From Azoarcus sp. (GTDB lineage: Bacteria > Pseudomonadota > Gammaproteobacteria > Burkholderiales > Rhodocyclaceae), in contig JAISPJ010000013.1 of the NCBI GenBank assembly GCA_031274995.1, positions 86-64,085 on the forward strand: 64,000 bases of DNA, written 5' to 3'. Made by a program: the position numbers and the translations under genes. Shown one piece after another: positions 14,385 through 20,833 of this stretch (within the stretch, counting starts at the first letter, position 1; each line of letters opens with the position of its first letter). Below the pieces are notes generated by a model that was given only the letters and a program-made list of their open reading frames with translations, did no database searches and was not told the DNA's origin.

Positions 14385-15346
14385 ACGCAAGCTTGAGTCC
14401 AGAAACCATTGATGTTGCTGCCGGGATCATTGTCCGCGATGATGGCCGTTTCCTTCTCGGGCGGCGTGCGCAGGGGAGTTTTTATCCAGGCTACTGGGAG
14501 TTTCCCGGCGGCAAGGTCGAACCGGGAGAATCGCCCGCCGGGGCGCTCTCCCGCGAACTCGACGAGGAATTGGGTTTGCGGGTCGGGCGGCTTTATCCGT
14601 GGCTTGTGCGCACGCATGACTACGAACATGCCCGTGTCCGGTTGCACTTTTTTGAAGCCGCGCAATGGCAGGGCGAGATCTGCCCCCGCGTCCATGACGC
14701 GCTGGATTGGGCTTTGCCCGGCGATGCGCCCACGCCGATGTTGCCAGCCAATGGGCCTGTCCTCAAGGCGCTTGCCTTGCCGCGCCGGATAGGGATTACC
14801 CATGCCGCCGCGCTTGGCGCCGAAGCCCAGCTTGCTGCCCTCGATCATGCCTTGCAAGCGGGATTGCGCTTCGTCCTGATCCGGGAAAACGCCTTGCCTG
14901 CGGCAGAACGGCAGGCATTCACGAAGCAAGCCGTTCACCGTGCGCATATGGCAGGCGCACTGGCTGTCGTCAACGGTGAACCGGAGTTGGCACGTGAAAC
15001 CGGGGCCGACGGTCTTCACCTGACGGCTGCGCGATTAGTGAAGAGTAGCTCCCGCTCTCGCCCGGATTTTGCGTGGGTGGGGGCTTCCTGCCACAACCGC
15101 GCGGAACTCGAATTTGCCGCCATGCGGGGGCTCGACTATGCGCTTCTCGGCGCGGTGAAGGAGACGGCGACCCACCCTGGTGGTGAAACGTTGGGCTGGG
15201 AAGGTTTTGCGGCGCTGGTCTCGGGATTGCCGCTGCCGGTGTTCGCGCTGGGCGGGGTAGAGGATGGCGACATGGAAACCGCTCGCCTGTCTGGCGCACA
15301 TGGCATCGCGGCGATTCGGAGCGCGTGGAACGGCGCGGAAAATTAA
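14381..15346 (+). CDS. Nudix hydrolase (MutT-like) fused to a thiamine-phosphate-synthase-like domain
   Basis: Nudix box WEFPGGKVEPGESPAGALSRELDEELG, then TIM-barrel-like part: GADGLHL, GASCHNRAEL, KETATHPG, PVFALGG. Confidence 0.9.
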   Translation: MNASLSPETIDVAAGIIVRDDGRFLLGRRAQGSFYPGYWEFPGGKVEPGESPAGALSRELDEELGLRVGRLYPWLVRTHDYEHARVRLHFFEAAQWQGEICPRVHDALDWALPGDAPTPMLPANGPVLKALALPRRIGITHAAALGAEAQLAALDHALQAGLRFVLIRENALPAAERQAFTKQAVHRAHMAGALAVVNGEPELARETGADGLHLTAARLVKSSSRSRPDFAWVGASCHNRAELEFAAMRGLDYALLGAVKETATHPGGETLGWEGFAALVSGLPLPVFALGGVEDGDMETARLSGAHGIAAIRSAWNGAEN

Positions 15347-15350
15347 TCCG

Positions 15351-16745
15351 CTAGCGAAGCTGCCAGGGGATCATCAGGAGAATTTTCAGATCCCGTTCGT
15401 CTTGAAAGATATTATTGAAGCCCGTCCAGCTTGGCAGGTCGGAATTGTTGCTGTAGCGGGTATAGTGGAAGCTGATGCGGGTGTTTTTCAGGGAACCGTC
15501 TGGCACGGCGTAGGCAAGATCGGCCGACCAGGCTCTTTCCCGTAGCCGCCATTCCACGCCATGAACCCGGCCACCCCGGCCGCGCACGCCAGAGAAGCCG
15601 AGTGTGAAGCCGGAAACGCCCAAAAGATCATTCAGGGAACGGGACACGGCCAGAAAAACGGCGCTTTCCCTGTTGTGGTTCCAGTCGGAGCGGTTGTCCC
15701 ACCAAGGCTCATACGCGCCGTTCGCGCCGCCGTACCGGCCAATCAGGCGATAGGCAAAATAGCCCGCGTGTTGTGGTTGGCTGCCGGGTGCGCGGGTATG
15801 GAGAAACTCGGCCTTCATAACCCAGGGGGCCGGACGCCAGGCGGCGGCCAGATAGTGTTGATGGGCTACATGGCCGCCGTACTGGTTGTTGGGCGAGTCG
15901 GGCGCGTCGCGGTCGGCCATGCCGTATAGTTGATAGCTGAGATAAGTTTTTTCGTCCGGTGAAGTGTATTTGAACTTGAGATGGGCGCTTCGCAGGAACC
16001 CCTGTGATTTACCATAGGCGGCTTCCGCTGAGAATTCAGGCGTGAAACGGTACCGGGCGCCGGACGACCAGAGATAATCGACACGTGTCTCGCCGTCGTT
16101 CCTGCGGAAATGGTAGGGGTCGGAAAACCAGGGCGACTTGTACTGATCGGCCCAGGCGAAAGCGATGCTGAGCGGGCCGCTGTCCATGCCGGTTTCCAGC
16201 CCCCGGTAAGTGCCGGGCATGAGTGACCAGTTGACGCCGATCACACCGGGACCGGAGGGCTGAAAGTAACCCGCCTTGCCCCAGAATTGCCGATTACCCG
16301 AAGCCAGCCGCAATTTAAAATGGGCGCGATAGAGGGATGTCCCGCTTTTCGCGTCGCGCTTCGACCCGTCCGGTGACCAAGGATCTCTCCAGGGGAAGAA
16401 ACTTGTCTCGTGATCCGGGCTGGCGCTGTTGGCGAGGTCGATTGTGGAGAACAGCCCCATGTCGAAGCCCACGGCATCGCCGTAATAAGGCGTGCTGATG
16501 TCCACGCTGCCTTGCAGGGTCTGGTGATGAAGGTTGTCGCGGAAACGTTCCTCATTGACATCGTAACGTTTCCGGTGGCGGTTGAAATAGAAAAAATTTC
16601 CGGAAACCGCAGGTAGCAGACTTTCGGCGGATTCGGGAATGCTTTCCTGTGCCGTGGCAGGCGCGGTCTCATCTGAGGCCGGAATCGGCTGGATATGGAA
16701 AAAAAACAGGGTAAGAAAACAAAAGGCAATTTTTAAAAAAGGCAT
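15351..16745 (-). CDS. chiP: Chitoporin-like outer-membrane porin (ChiP/YbfM, OprD superfamily)
   Basis: Signal peptide MPFLKIAFCFLTLFFFHIQPIPAS; KAGYFQPSGPGVIGVNWSLMPGTYRG, EPWWDNRSDWNHNRESAVF and a C-terminus (HYTRYSNNSDLPSWTGFNNIFQDERDLK) that recall E. coli ChiP (WDNRSDFN...GNIFQDERDVK). Confidence 0.8.
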   Translation of the reverse strand: MPFLKIAFCFLTLFFFHIQPIPASDETAPATAQESIPESAESLLPAVSGNFFYFNRHRKRYDVNEERFRDNLHHQTLQGSVDISTPYYGDAVGFDMGLFSTIDLANSASPDHETSFFPWRDPWSPDGSKRDAKSGTSLYRAHFKLRLASGNRQFWGKAGYFQPSGPGVIGVNWSLMPGTYRGLETGMDSGPLSIAFAWADQYKSPWFSDPYHFRRNDGETRVDYLWSSGARYRFTPEFSAEAAYGKSQGFLRSAHLKFKYTSPDEKTYLSYQLYGMADRDAPDSPNNQYGGHVAHQHYLAAAWRPAPWVMKAEFLHTRAPGSQPQHAGYFAYRLIGRYGGANGAYEPWWDNRSDWNHNRESAVFLAVSRSLNDLLGVSGFTLGFSGVRGRGGRVHGVEWRLRERAWSADLAYAVPDGSLKNTRISFHYTRYSNNSDLPSWTGFNNIFQDERDLKILLMIPWQLR

Positions 16746-16750
16746 TTTGT

Positions 16751-18970
16751 TTATCCATGGTCTTTCCGGTTCATGTCGAACACATATTTCAGCAATTTCT
16801 CGCCCGCGATAGGCGGGCTGTAGAAATAGCCTTGGAAAATATGGCAACCAAGGCATTGAAGTACGTCGATCTGTTCCTGGTTTTCCACGTATTCGACGAT
16901 GATCTTTACGTTCAAGGAACGGCACAGATCAACAATGGTGCTGATGACTTCCACGCAGATATTGCTTGTGGCGACATCCTTGGAGAGTGCCCGGTCGATT
17001 TTCAGGATATCGATCGGAAAATGTTTGAGATAAACCAGCGAACTGTGCCCCATCCCGAAGTCATCCATCGAGATGATGAATCCCATGTCGTTGAGTTCCT
17101 TCAGAATCAGGTTCTGCGGGCTTTCCGGGTCGAGGGCGATGGATTCGGTGACCTCGATGCCGATCATGTAATTTTGCAGATTGTGGCGATCCAGGCAGGC
17201 CACCACTTTTTTCGCCAGTTTGCTGTCGCCGAGTTGCTGGATGGAAACGTTGACCGAAGTCTTGAAATGGTCATCGATGCCTGCTTCCCGCCAGCGCGCC
17301 CGTTCGGCGCAGGCTTCGTTCAGTACCCAGAGTCCGAGGGAGCGCATGAATTCACCGTCCTCGGAAATCGCCACCATGATCGGCGCGGGAATAGCCCCAT
17401 AAACCGGATGCTTCCAGCGCACCAGCGCCTCCGCACCGATGACCATGCCGGTTTCGTAATCGACCTGTGGCTGATATTCAAGATAAAGGCCGGTATTTGT
17501 TTTCAGCGCCCGTTCCAGATCATTCGCCAGGGCGCGGGCGAGCACACCGATTTCGTCGTTACGGTCGAGGCATTTCTTTCCGGAGGGGCCCACGACGTTG
17601 TTGCAGGCAATTTCCATGAGTGCCTGCATGGCCTTTTTCTGCCGCTCCGATTTTTCCCGGTCGGAAATGCGGACGAAAGGGGCGTAAATCAGGGTTCCAA
17701 GCGCAAGGTTGAACGCTTGCAGCAGGCTGCCCGAAATCGAGCCGGTGGAGAAATAACCACCCAGAATCGGTGGTGTCGTCCAACTGAGTTCCCGGGCAGG
17801 CAGAGGGACAAAACCGTAATACACCACCAGGTAACTGATTATCGTCATGACAATCGGAACGAACACGAAAGGCACGAGAAAAATGGGATTCAGAATGATG
17901 GGCAGGCCGAAGAGCAGGATTTCATTGATATTGAACATTCCAGGCACGAGGGAGATTTTTGCCAGACGTCGGCTGCCGTTGTTCTTGCTGGCGATGAGCA
18001 GCGCCGCGAGCAGGCAGACGGAAGTACCGGAACCGCCCATGAACACGAACATATCCAGAAAATTTTTGGTGACGATGTTGGGCGGCGGCAGATTTATTGC
18101 CAGCGCTTTCTGATTGGCTTGCTGCGCTGCTTCGAACAGTCCCGTAGTCAGAGGATCGAGTACGTTCGTGCCGTGGATGCCGAAGAACCAGAAAACATCG
18201 ACAAGAAAAACATAAAGGATGCTCGAATCCAGCGTGTGCCGAAGCTCCTCGAACTGGAAAGGGAAAAGGAGCGCGTCATGGACCGCCTGATGAATCGAAA
18301 TGTTGAATCCCGCCAGAAAAAGGAAATAAAAGGCGGCAAACAGAAAAACAGTCAGGATGCCCGGCAGAAGCAGGGAGAAAGCCTGCTGAATCGAGGCTTC
18401 CATGCCTTCTGAATAAATCAGCATGGACAGCCGTCGTATGTGCGCCAGCTTGAGGAAAATCCGGCTGGAGATGACGGCCACGAGGATGCTGACGAACAGC
18501 CCTTGCGCCCCCGTGTATTCCATGATTCCGTTTTCACCGCCTGTCGGCAGGATGACCATCAGGCAAGCCAGCGATGTCAGGGCGGCGATGAGCGGGCTGA
18601 CGGGATTGGCAATGTGCCATTGGTTGTTCAGGACGGCAAGATGGTAGCTCGTGCCTGCCAGCATCGGCACCGAGAGCATTCCGAAAGTGCCTTGCCAGAT
18701 AAGCCCGCCGAATTGCCTCCAGTTTTCCCCAAACACTTCTTTCATGAAGTCTTGGTAGCCGGGCAGGGGCAGGTGGTTGAAGAGAATGGCGAGTGCGCCT
18801 GCCGTAACCAGTGGCAGGCAGAACAGAAAACCGTTCCGAATGGCCTGCATCACCGGGTAATAGGCCCAATTCGGTACGGTCAGCGCGTAGAAACGGTTAG
18901 TTACCCACATGTGCATGGCAGCGTGCGAGTTCCTGTCAGGTGTCGTTTCCGCGCCTGGTTCTCCGTTCAT
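16751..18970 (-). CDS. PTS EIIC (lactose/cellobiose/chitobiose ChbC-CelB family) fused to an EAL c-di-GMP phosphodiesterase
   Basis: N-terminal half: AIRNGF..CLPL, FWFFGIHG, FVFMGGSG, PGMFNINE..FGLPIILNP, WTTPPILGG, LIYAPFVR. C-terminal half: EYQPQV, GAEALVRW, SVNVS, IEVTES, DDFGMGHSSL, LKIDR, IVEYVEN, FQGYFYSPP. Confidence 0.92.
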   Translation of the reverse strand: MNGEPGAETTPDRNSHAAMHMWVTNRFYALTVPNWAYYPVMQAIRNGFLFCLPLVTAGALAILFNHLPLPGYQDFMKEVFGENWRQFGGLIWQGTFGMLSVPMLAGTSYHLAVLNNQWHIANPVSPLIAALTSLACLMVILPTGGENGIMEYTGAQGLFVSILVAVISSRIFLKLAHIRRLSMLIYSEGMEASIQQAFSLLLPGILTVFLFAAFYFLFLAGFNISIHQAVHDALLFPFQFEELRHTLDSSILYVFLVDVFWFFGIHGTNVLDPLTTGLFEAAQQANQKALAINLPPPNIVTKNFLDMFVFMGGSGTSVCLLAALLIASKNNGSRRLAKISLVPGMFNINEILLFGLPIILNPIFLVPFVFVPIVMTIISYLVVYYGFVPLPARELSWTTPPILGGYFSTGSISGSLLQAFNLALGTLIYAPFVRISDREKSERQKKAMQALMEIACNNVVGPSGKKCLDRNDEIGVLARALANDLERALKTNTGLYLEYQPQVDYETGMVIGAEALVRWKHPVYGAIPAPIMVAISEDGEFMRSLGLWVLNEACAERARWREAGIDDHFKTSVNVSIQQLGDSKLAKKVVACLDRHNLQNYMIGIEVTESIALDPESPQNLILKELNDMGFIISMDDFGMGHSSLVYLKHFPIDILKIDRALSKDVATSNICVEVISTIVDLCRSLNVKIIVEYVENQEQIDVLQCLGCHIFQGYFYSPPIAGEKLLKYVFDMNRKDHG

Positions 18971-19130
18971 GGATACCTTCACCAAAGGGAATGTCCAATG
19001 GTCTGGATAAAATTCCCTGAGAGTTTCTACGAAGCGGGGATACTTGGACGTAAAAAAATACCCGTTTCAGTCCATGTCATGGAAGTATAAGAAAAACATG
19101 GCGGGTTTTCGGTACTTTTTGATGGCATAT

Positions 19131-19162
19131 AAAAAATGATGCCGCCACAAGGACGGCATCAT
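19131..19162 (-). terminator. Intrinsic terminator downstream of ETF-QO
   Basis: ATGATGCCGCC-ACAA-GGACGGCATCAT hairpin preceded by an A-run (U-tract on the minus strand). Confidence 0.6.
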
Positions 19163-19186
19163 TCATCGGTTCAACTGCTTGACCGG

Positions 19187-20833
19187 TTACATACCCTGAT
19201 AAATTGGCCCTTCACCGCCTTGGGGCGTGACCCATTCGATGTTCTGCGTCGGGTCTTTGATATCGCAGGTCTTGCAATGCAGGCAGTTCGAACTGTTGAT
19301 CTGGAGCCGTGGCCTGCCGTTTTCGCCGTCATTGACGATCTCATAGACTCCCGCCGGGCAGTAGCGTTGCTCGGGCGAGTCGTAGACTTCCAGGTTGATG
19401 GAAACGGCGGCTTCAGGGTTCTTGAGCTGTAAGTGGCAAGGCTGGTCTTCTTCGTGGTTGGTGTTGGAGAGGAAGACCGAGGACAGGCGGTCGAAAGTCA
19501 GTGCGCCATCGGGCTTGGGATAGTCGATCTTCTGGCATTCGGCGGCGGGTTTGAGCTTGTCGTGGTCGCTGTGGTTGTGCATCGTCCAGGGAGCCTTGCC
19601 GAAGAAGAGTTTTTGATCCATGCCAAAGAGCATGGAACCAACCCAGAAAGATTTCTTCATCATCGGCTTGAAGTTGCGCGTCTTGTGCAACTCGGTGTAA
19701 AGCCACGACTCTCGGAAAGCGATGGGGTAGGCAGTGAGAGTGTCGCGCTGGCGATTGGCAACGACGGCATCAAACGTGGCCCCGGCGACAAGTGTGCCGG
19801 ACTTGATGGCAGCGTGGTTGCCCTTGATGCGGGCGGCGTTGAGGAAGCCCGCGTTGTCGCCGATGAGCGCACCGCCGGGGAAGACCAGACGCGGCAGGCT
19901 CTGGATGTTGCCGGTGGCAATGGCGCGTGCGCCGTAAGCCAGACGTTTGCCCCCTTCCAGGAATTTGCGAATATCGGGGTGAGTCTTGTAACGCTGCATT
20001 TCCTCGAACGGCGACAGGAAGGGATTGGTGTAATTCAAGCCGACGACAAAACCTGTCTGGATGAGATTGTCATCGAGGTGGTACATGAATGAACCCCCGT
20101 AGACATCGTTGGTGAGCGGCCAGCCTGCGGTGTGAACGATGAGACCGGGATTGTGATAGGGGTTGCCGGGAACTTCCCATAGTTCCTTTATGCCGATGCC
20201 GAAGACTTGCGGGTCGGAGCCTTCGCGCAGGTTGTATCTGGCTTCGAGGCGTTTGGCGAGATGGCCCCGGCAACCTTCCGCGAAGAGGGTATATTTGGCG
20301 AGGAGTTCCATGCCGGGCTGGAAGTTTGGCCCGTGCGTGCCGTCGTGCAGTATGCCCATGTCGCCCGTGACAACGCCCTTGACCGCGCCGTTTTCGTCAT
20401 AGAGCACGTCTGCGCCCGCAAAACCCGGATAGACTTCTACGCCCAGCGCCTCGGCCTGTTCGCCCATCCATTTGACGATTTCGCCCATGCGGACGATGTA
20501 ATTTCCGTGATTGTCGAAACAGTCCGGCATGAGCGCGAGCGGAAAAGCATAAGATTTTGTTTCGGTGAGGTACAGGACGCGATCTTCCACTGCATGGGTT
20601 TTGATCGGTGCGCCGCGTTCCTTCCAGTCCGGGAAAAGTTCCTCAAGGGATTTGATATCAAGAACCGTGCCGGACAAAGTATGTGCGCCAATTTCAGCGC
20701 CTTTTTCGATAAGGCACACCGAAACGTCGTGATTGCGTTCGGCGGCAAGCTGCTTGATCCTGATGGCTGCTGCCAGGCCTGACGGGCCACCACCGACGAT
20801 CAAGACATCGAACTCCATCGATTCGCGTTCCAT
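19187..20833 (-). CDS. Electron-transfer flavoprotein:ubiquinone oxidoreductase
   Basis: FAD motif DVLIVGGGPSGLAAAI, LIEKGAEIGAHTLSG, 4Fe-4S ligands RYCPAGVYE...NCLHCKTCDIKDP. Confidence 0.96.
   Translation of the reverse strand: MERESMEFDVLIVGGGPSGLAAAIRIKQLAAERNHDVSVCLIEKGAEIGAHTLSGTVLDIKSLEELFPDWKERGAPIKTHAVEDRVLYLTETKSYAFPLALMPDCFDNHGNYIVRMGEIVKWMGEQAEALGVEVYPGFAGADVLYDENGAVKGVVTGDMGILHDGTHGPNFQPGMELLAKYTLFAEGCRGHLAKRLEARYNLREGSDPQVFGIGIKELWEVPGNPYHNPGLIVHTAGWPLTNDVYGGSFMYHLDDNLIQTGFVVGLNYTNPFLSPFEEMQRYKTHPDIRKFLEGGKRLAYGARAIATGNIQSLPRLVFPGGALIGDNAGFLNAARIKGNHAAIKSGTLVAGATFDAVVANRQRDTLTAYPIAFRESWLYTELHKTRNFKPMMKKSFWVGSMLFGMDQKLFFGKAPWTMHNHSDHDKLKPAAECQKIDYPKPDGALTFDRLSSVFLSNTNHEEDQPCHLQLKNPEAAVSINLEVYDSPEQRYCPAGVYEIVNDGENGRPRLQINSSNCLHCKTCDIKDPTQNIEWVTPQGGEGPIYQGM

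Follow-up and report, generated by a model that had tools for sequence, protein, structure and literature searches.

Lactose-family (Lac-family) permeases of the sugar phosphotransferase system (PTS) belong to a superfamily whose enzyme IIC (EIIC) components have ten membrane helices and work as homodimeric elevator transporters, the isomerisation of which is accelerated 100-1000 fold by phosphorylated EIIB; Lac-family PTS always include EIIA and EIIB (PMC13543919). The PTS_EIIC domain has also been catalogued as a rare domain of the enzymes that handle cyclic diguanosine monophosphate (c-di-GMP), where it is described as a phospho-receiver and no study is cited (PMC8846402). Concerning the outer membrane, the contacts made with chitohexaose by EcChiP, the chitoporin of Escherichia coli, are listed together with the solved structures, PDB 7VTZ-7VU3 (PMC13578368). 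Here, we describe a locus at which these kinds of protein meet, in a 64,000-nucleotide stretch (called here the window) of contig JAISPJ010000013.1 from Azoarcus sp., a member of the Rhodocyclaceae. It consists of a gene encoding a Lac-family EIIC fused to an EAL domain (called here EIIC-EAL) and of a gene encoding a porin resembling the chitoporin ChiP. An earlier reading made from the sequence alone (the original prediction) had proposed that the porin delivers a chitin-derived or related beta-linked sugar to an EIIC repurposed as a receptor, whose occupancy would change phosphodiesterase activity. It had added that EIIC-EAL fusions are known as an architecture but lack a functional description. 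This last statement agrees with the catalogue cited above and with our literature search, in which neither a functional study of PTS_EIIC-EAL nor a paper linking a chitoporin to c-di-GMP signalling was found.

The analysis reported below points to a two-gene import-and-sense unit for chito-oligosaccharides, working by the proposed mechanism, a reading that we judge a little likelier to hold than to fail. Since the genus lacks both the partner proteins and the enzymes for using such sugars, the module most likely senses chitin fragments instead of feeding on them.

The EIIC-EAL fusion protein

The N-terminal part of the fusion scored above the cut-off of the Pfam PTS_EIIC profile (PF02378; 4.6e-27, 95.4 bits for a cut-off of 30.7) and passed that of the NCBIfam model for the Lac/cellobiose IIC subfamily (TIGR00410; 280.8 bits for a cut-off of 236). 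Its closest solved relative is the chitobiose EIIC of Bacillus cereus, ChbC (3QNQ; 8e-66), and it is 30% identical to E. coli ChbC. The GIHG and NINE motifs, by which the protein had been assigned to the ChbC/CelB family, are both present and align with those of 3QNQ. In 54 fusion proteins, with identities down to 41%, the NINE glutamate (E350) is invariant and the GIHG histidine (H266) is at least 90% conserved. Cao et al. are said to have located in 2011 the corresponding ChbC residues, H250 and E334, at the sugar hydroxyl that gets phosphorylated.

The C-terminal part of the protein matches the Pfam EAL profile over its full length (PF00563, profile positions 2-236 of 236; 2.3e-59, 201 bits) and resembles PDB 8ARV (5.7e-48). 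Each of the catalytic motifs named in the original prediction was found, namely EAL (residues 514-516), SVN (572-574), EVTE (606-609), DDFG (636-639), KIDR (657-660) and QGY (713-715). Residues E514, R518, E537, N574, E606, E609, D636, D637, K657, E693 and Q713 are invariant in the 54 family members. We take these residues to have the catalytic and metal-binding roles of their counterparts in characterised enzymes, and their invariance fits an active phosphodiesterase.

In the AlphaFold2 model of the fusion (predicted local distance difference test score 84.5, predicted template modelling score 0.75), the last membrane helix extends into the cytoplasm as one long helix (residues 412-456), followed by a loop and by a helix (residues 473-491) that enters the EAL domain. 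Because Arg and Lys abound just C-terminal to the final membrane helix and EIICs have a ten-helix topology, the EAL domain is predicted to be cytoplasmic.

The associated porin

The porin matches the Pfam OprD family (2.3e-11), and its sole NCBIfam match is the model of the enterobacterial chitoporin ChiP (NF047822), with 327.7 bits. Compared to solved structures, it is far closer to the chitoporins SmChiP of Serratia marcescens (2e-73) and EcChiP (~1e-69) than to the Occ/OprD channels (6e-3). All six EcChiP residues that form hydrogen bonds with chitohexaose (R18, E78, S133, R295, D316 and N417) are kept in the window porin, as is W310 (EcChiP numbering), and four of the six contact N-acetyl groups. 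Save for one S-to-A change, the same six residues are kept in all 14 module-linked porins. By its sequence, the protein is thus a ChiP-like, monomeric OprD-fold chitoporin, in agreement with its original description as a ChiP/YbfM-like porin, and it groups with ChiP, apart from the amino-acid OprD porins.

Past the signal peptide, porins of this subfamily carry some 25 additional residues, acidic in character and rich in Pro and Ala, an extension noted at window positions 16677-16745 and in the homologues P0229, P0196, P0221 and P0237. It reads SDETAPATAQE... in the window porin, and EcChiP does not have it. The N-terminal plug used by Vibrio ChiP makes a plug-like role for this extension conceivable by analogy. 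The extension was rejected as a motif specific to the module, since it occurs in non-module homologues too. The idea that the porin subfamily is exclusive to the module was likewise rejected, homologues at 45-49% identity being found alone or in other contexts. In one of these contexts (L093:5315-13291), a ChiP-like porin 46% identical to that of the window lies about 440 nt downstream of a gene for a GAF-HD-GYP protein and is followed within 5 kb by genes for a Ras-like GTPase and a GGDEF protein. HD-GYP domains constitute the other class of c-di-GMP phosphodiesterases, and this locus may be a second, independent link of the porin subfamily to c-di-GMP signalling, or a coincidence. In an uncultured deltaproteobacterium (L092:4927-8437), a ChiP-like porin gene starts 19 nt after the gene of a secreted 684-residue protein without a Pfam match; the same assembly has an EIIC-EAL without porin on a separate record (L004).

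Phosphotransferase partners and sugar catabolism

The window genome (2.11 Mb, 96.8% complete) was searched together with 21 other species representatives of the genus (1.7-3.2 Mb), giving 22 metagenome-assembled genomes. Profile searches returned no lactose-type EIIA (PF02255) and no member of glycoside hydrolase (GH) family GH20 in the window genome and, in all 22 genomes, no EIIB (PF02302), no GH18 chitinase and no NagA above cut-off. No tblastn homologue of NagA, NagB, NagE, NagC, ChbA, ChbB, ChbF or ChbG was detected in the window genome, nor was a homologue of BglA (GH1) or BglX (GH3). A single HPr-like gene is present (C33:35108-35344), with no enzyme II (EII) component of a sugar PTS. 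The lack of EIIA, EIIB, chitinase, hexosaminidase and nag genes, which the original prediction had stated for the 64 kb, thus extends to the whole 2.11-Mb genome. It should be noted that a small genome without NagA, GH1, BglX-type GH3, GH18, GH20 and sugar-PTS EII fits a reduced, host-associated lifestyle.

The nearest unfused EIICs, which fall with E. coli ChbC into a single clade of the EIIC tree (support 100/100), served as a positive control. All of them adjoin ChbB, nearly all adjoin ChbA, many adjoin a GH4 ChbF and four adjoin the chitobiose deacetylase ChbG; no GH1 gene lies beside them. The search method is therefore able to detect such genes, and the same queries found neither ChbA nor ChbB within 6 kb at any of about 60 fusion loci.

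EIIC-EAL thus lacks the cognate EIIA and EIIB that a Lac-family PTS requires, and since neither was found in the searched genomes, it should be unable to work as a phosphorylation-coupled transporter. Because EIIB is missing from all 22 genomes, gene content also contradicts the phospho-receiver description for this clade. For EIIB, GH18 and NagA, the agreement of all 22 genomes answers the objection that one assembly may be incomplete.

When an EIIC keeps its pocket but has neither a phosphoryl donor nor a catabolic route behind it, the best interpretation is that of a receptor. Alternatively, it could still be a carrier working by facilitated diffusion in a nutrient route, its EAL domain being a reporter of flux or a c-di-GMP-binding gate of uptake. 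EIICs are capable of slow facilitated diffusion, the histidine and glutamate of the sugar site are kept as in true transporters, and a porin followed by an inner-membrane carrier is the arrangement of an uptake operon. We nevertheless regard a carrier as quite unlikely, given that no route for using the sugar was found (NagA, NagB, ChbF, ChbG, GH1, GH3, GH18 and GH20 in the window genome, NagA and GH18 genus-wide) and that the transport step is 100-1000 times slower without phospho-EIIB (PMC13543919). In addition, every catalytic residue of the EAL domain is invariant, as would be expected of an enzyme more than of a domain limited to binding.

Conservation and origin of the gene pair

A porin gene lies directly downstream of the fusion gene, on the same strand, in 12 of the 13 public loci whose EIIC-EAL is at least 57% identical to that of the window. 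Three more distant loci from Desulfovibrio (L015, L016 and L021) are also paired, with identities of 40-43% for the EIIC and 44-47% for the porin. The stop codon of the first gene and the start codon of the second overlap as ATGA in 6 of 14 related loci. Among the 21 other genomes of the genus, 15 have both genes, which are adjacent in 13 and split across contigs in two (G311 and G314), 5 have neither, and in the last one EIIC-EAL is cut by a contig end. The flanks differ among loci, so that the two genes are each other's only constant neighbour. Shared synteny was considered and rejected, as the ETF-QO/PurL flank is common only to the window and its closest locus, L005.

The porin was not found in the 15 other genera of the family or the 24 other families sampled, and of 300 other genomes from the order, just 3 have a full-length EIIC-EAL fusion. 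In the tree of EIIC domains, the Rhodocyclaceae fusions (14 sequences) are sister to a clade of Desulfovibrionaceae fusions (7 sequences) with a support of 98/91, and the ChiP pairing is restricted to this joint clade. The pairing goes back to a single event, has passed between phyla and has been kept since; it was not invented several times independently. The distances between EIIC-EAL proteins and those between the porins are correlated (r = 0.91), a value that shared descent would give as well.

Fusions that do not adjoin a ChiP-like porin were also inspected for a common downstream partner. None emerged from the ChiP-less fusions of Synergistaceae, Sporomusa, other Desulfovibrio and other betaproteobacteria, their neighbours being mutually unrelated. 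In L001 (8998-13400), the region downstream of EIIC-EAL holds genes of type VI secretion (PAAR, Hcp) and others of unknown identity in the place of the porin. In two deltaproteobacterial loci of the sister clade (L004:8265-9203 and L018:3667-4599), a conserved protein of about 310 residues, without a Pfam match, is encoded where the porin would be expected. In Sporomusa ovata (L023:6001-9299), a gene for a GGDEF-type protein with an RYGGEEF motif comes after that of EIIC-EAL, so that the partner of the transporter-fold phosphodiesterase may be a cyclase in this species, and not a porin. Finally, two EIICs from Spirochaetota (L060 and L061) nest within the fusion clade, but their similarity to the query ends near residue 524; either the fusion is truncated in them or another domain may follow at the C-terminus.

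Organization of the locus

The features of the locus are given in Table 1. The two same-strand genes and the 5-nt spacer between them were found as first described. The longest minus-strand open reading frame of the fusion gene, 16751-18985, would give 744 residues from a TTG codon. Since the ATG has a GAAGG ribosome-binding site and leads to an N-terminus (MNGEPGAE...) that is common to homologues, the shorter protein and the end coordinate of the original prediction are retained as correct.

Table 1. Features of the EIIC-EAL/porin locus in the window
Feature	Window positions	Strand	Description
EIIC-EAL fusion gene	16751-18970	minus	739 aa + stop; ATG at 18970
Lac-family PTS EIIC domain	17636-18838	minus	aa 45-445; aligns with 3QNQ (ChbC of B. 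cereus)
GIHG motif	18170-18181	minus	aa 264-267; His = H266, aligns with ChbC H250
NINE motif	17921-17932	minus	aa 347-350; Glu = E350, aligns with ChbC E334
Linker	17489-17665	minus	aa 436-494; loop with conserved GPSGKKCLDR stretch
EAL domain	16796-17524	minus	aa 483-725
Intergenic spacer	16746-16750	minus	5 nt, acaaa
ChiP-like porin gene	15351-16745	minus	464 aa; ATG at 16745; signal-peptide-like N-terminus
Untranslated leader	18971-19133	minus	5' of EIIC-EAL; predicted to contain the module promoter
Terminator-like hairpin	19134-19164	minus	13-bp stem then T run; 3' of the ETF-ubiquinone oxidoreductase gene (upstream neighbour)

Because a terminator-like hairpin lies upstream, no terminator-like site was found in the 5-nt junction and the gene downstream of the porin is convergent, the pair looks like a bicistronic unit of its own. 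No consensus match to a sigma-70 promoter was found in the leader of about 160 nt. The possibility that the leader holds a c-di-GMP riboswitch, or a small RNA resembling ChiX/ChiZ, was considered and rejected, as no Rfam family matched positions 14800-19600 at E <=1 in a test that is not sensitive. Recent horizontal transfer, considered because the local GC content is 0.545 compared to 0.584 for the genome, was also rejected: the GC content at third codon positions is 0.68 in both genes and 0.67-0.76 in the neighbours, and the local dip therefore reflects amino-acid composition.

A candidate import-and-sense unit

According to the mechanism that we propose, the ChiP-type channel would admit chito-oligosaccharides into the periplasm, where the orphan EIIC would bind them, most likely as (GlcNAc)2-3, in its retained transporter pocket. 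The sugars could come from other gut microbes or be released by chitinous material of the host or of fungi. With no EIIB to phosphorylate the sugar or to speed the cycle, binding would mainly shift the elevator-type transport domain. The EAL domain hangs from the last EIIC helix by a conserved helical linker, and the shift would rearrange the two EAL domains of the homodimer and change their phosphodiesterase activity, either by activation or by inhibition. The resulting change in c-di-GMP would then modify traits under its control, for instance attachment or motility. The window genome encodes other GGDEF-EAL proteins, one of which has an RIGGDEF motif, and a c-di-GMP network into which the module could feed therefore exists. 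The interpretation advanced in the original prediction gains computational support from the conserved pairing, the grouping of the porin with chitoporins and the lack of cognate EIIA and EIIB. Of the findings that the original prediction said would refute it, those open to computation (a pairing not conserved elsewhere, a porin clustering with amino-acid OprD porins, cognate EIIA/EIIB) were looked for and not found. What the analysis establishes is the anatomy of the module, the intactness of its catalytic and sugar-site residues, the chitoporin identity of the porin, a pairing that is conserved and translationally coupled, and the lack of PTS partners and of a catabolic route for chitin or GlcNAc; the ligand, the elevator coupling, the sign of regulation and the downstream output are what we infer.

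The record names of the relatives resemble those given to genomes from termite and millipede guts, the prefix EPI_MAG appearing to designate the millipede Epibolus pulchripes, and a gut habitat of the window organism is suggested by these relatives alone. The gut community of E. pulchripes is rich in GH18 chitinases. A termite-specific clade of Rhodocyclaceae co-diversifies with its hosts (PMC10281810). A broader scenario, which we offer tentatively and consider rather doubtful as a whole, is that a cassette of ChiP and EIIC-EAL, exchanged horizontally, is common to non-chitinolytic symbionts of arthropod guts, namely this genus of Rhodocyclaceae with small genomes and some Desulfovibrio. With it they would eavesdrop on the products of chitin breakdown, released from the chitinous gut lining of the host, the peritrophic matrix or fungal food, and set c-di-GMP-controlled attachment. 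In mechanistic terms, this scenario would provide the first example of a second-messenger enzyme gated directly by the position of the elevator-type transport domain to which it is fused, once that domain is released from its phosphorelay.

Several observations weigh against the import-and-sense reading. In loop 6 of the EAL domain, the motif is GMGHSS, an unusual variant specific to the family; the usual form is G(T/A)GYSS. Metagenome-assembled genomes could miss genes, though the 22 genomes agree. The porin is a distant member of its group, just 34% identical to EcChiP and well under the equivalog cut-off of NF047822 (327.7 bits compared to 750). Of the four aromatic stacking residues, the window porin has substitutions at two (W16 by F and F134 by L, the latter position being L or I in the alignment of module porins), and the alignment of W92 is uncertain. 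Moreover, binding by monomeric ChiPs is weak and less selective (PMC13578368). The remaining points concern the pairing itself: one EIIC-EAL that is 77% identical to that of the window has no porin (L001/L002), three members of the Desulfovibrionaceae sister clade lack it as well, related porins are found without the fusion, and the single evolutionary origin means that the retention of the pair is not independent replication.

The porin points bear on the identity of the ligand, as the low selectivity of monomeric ChiPs means that another beta-linked oligosaccharide could be bound. The same architecture and the same logic could serve cellobiose or cellodextrins, mannobiose or lichenan fragments, an alternative that we consider possible but unlikely. 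Lac-family EIICs span cellobiose, lactose and chitobiose, the best NCBIfam model of the EIIC is the generic cellobiose/lactose IIC, and the porin falls short of the ChiP equivalog; cellodextrins, in addition, are abundant in the guts of lignocellulose-feeding arthropods such as those evoked by the names of the relatives' records. Set against these points are the six hydrogen-bonding residues of EcChiP, four of them touching N-acetyl groups, and the grouping of the nearest unfused EIICs with E. coli ChbC (100/100), in chb-type operons with ChbF, four times with ChbG and never with GH1. These N-acetyl contacts and this chb-type ancestry argue for chitin sugars without proving them. A chito-oligosaccharide would thus be the most likely ligand, another beta-1,4 sugar being possible.

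The points on the pairing would also suit a general or unrelated porin that has been inherited beside a phosphodiesterase since a single ancestral event, an adjacency without functional meaning: the two genes came together only once, related porins are known from other contexts and a few fusions of the clade have no porin. This explanation appears very improbable to us, since the pair persists in two phyla and at protein identities as low as about 40% although its flanks changed, the stop and start codons overlap in part of the loci, and the genus has both genes or neither. Furthermore, the porin family and the EIIC family indicate the same class of sugar.

If the import-and-sense reading is correct, the consequences would be of several kinds. 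For most c-di-GMP enzymes, the ligands of the sensor domains are unknown; here, a homologue of the sensor has been solved and its sugar pocket is known, and the sensor is accompanied by an outer-membrane channel of known specificity, which makes the ligand hypothesis unusually concrete and testable. A PTS permease fold would be reusable as a receptor without a phosphorelay, correcting the phospho-receiver description, and a second-messenger pathway would be served by a two-membrane import-and-sense design. Lastly, gut symbionts unable to digest chitin might read its fragments as a cue of place or host.

Comparison with known systems

The closest system on the EIIC side is the chitobiose PTS ChbBCA, which has the same Lac-family EIIC fold with the same GIHG histidine and NINE glutamate, the nearest unfused relatives being encoded in chb-type operons. 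EIIC-EAL differs from it by its C-terminal EAL domain, by the lack of EIIB in the 22 genomes and by the lack of EIIA, ChbF, ChbG and ChbR in the window genome. On the porin side, the closest solved relatives are the monomeric OprD-fold channels EcChiP and SmChiP, with which the window porin has in common the six hydrogen-bonding residues and W310. It differs from them in being only about 34% identical, under the equivalog cut-off and endowed with a longer acidic N-terminal extension, and it appears to be co-transcribed with a signalling enzyme instead of being part of a catabolic regulon. No homologue of ChiQ was found in the window genome by a test that is not sensitive.

Chitin sensing in Vibrio follows the same logic, as chitin oligomers reach the periplasm through a chitoporin of the outer membrane and are detected there by a sensor of the inner membrane. 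There, however, the chitoporin is a trimeric OmpC-like ChiP, and a periplasmic chitin-binding protein together with the histidine kinase ChiS (mentioned in PMC13578368) switches on chitin catabolism, whereas the sensor of the present module has a transporter fold and a predicted output of c-di-GMP hydrolysis, with no catabolism. The glucose-6-phosphate sensor UhpC of the UhpABC system is alike in keeping a transporter fold for binding while signalling instead of feeding. UhpC is a major facilitator superfamily (MFS) protein that signals through a separate kinase; in the module, an elevator-type EIIC is covalently fused to the output enzyme. The EIIA(Glc)-PdeS system of Vibrio cholerae likewise couples sugar availability to an EAL phosphodiesterase (PMC8846402), but there a soluble EIIA binds the phosphodiesterase and signals by whether or not it is phosphorylated, and the EIIC of the module has no phosphorelay partner. 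What would be new here is a c-di-GMP phosphodiesterase that senses its ligand through a repurposed transporter and is supplied by a dedicated outer-membrane channel.

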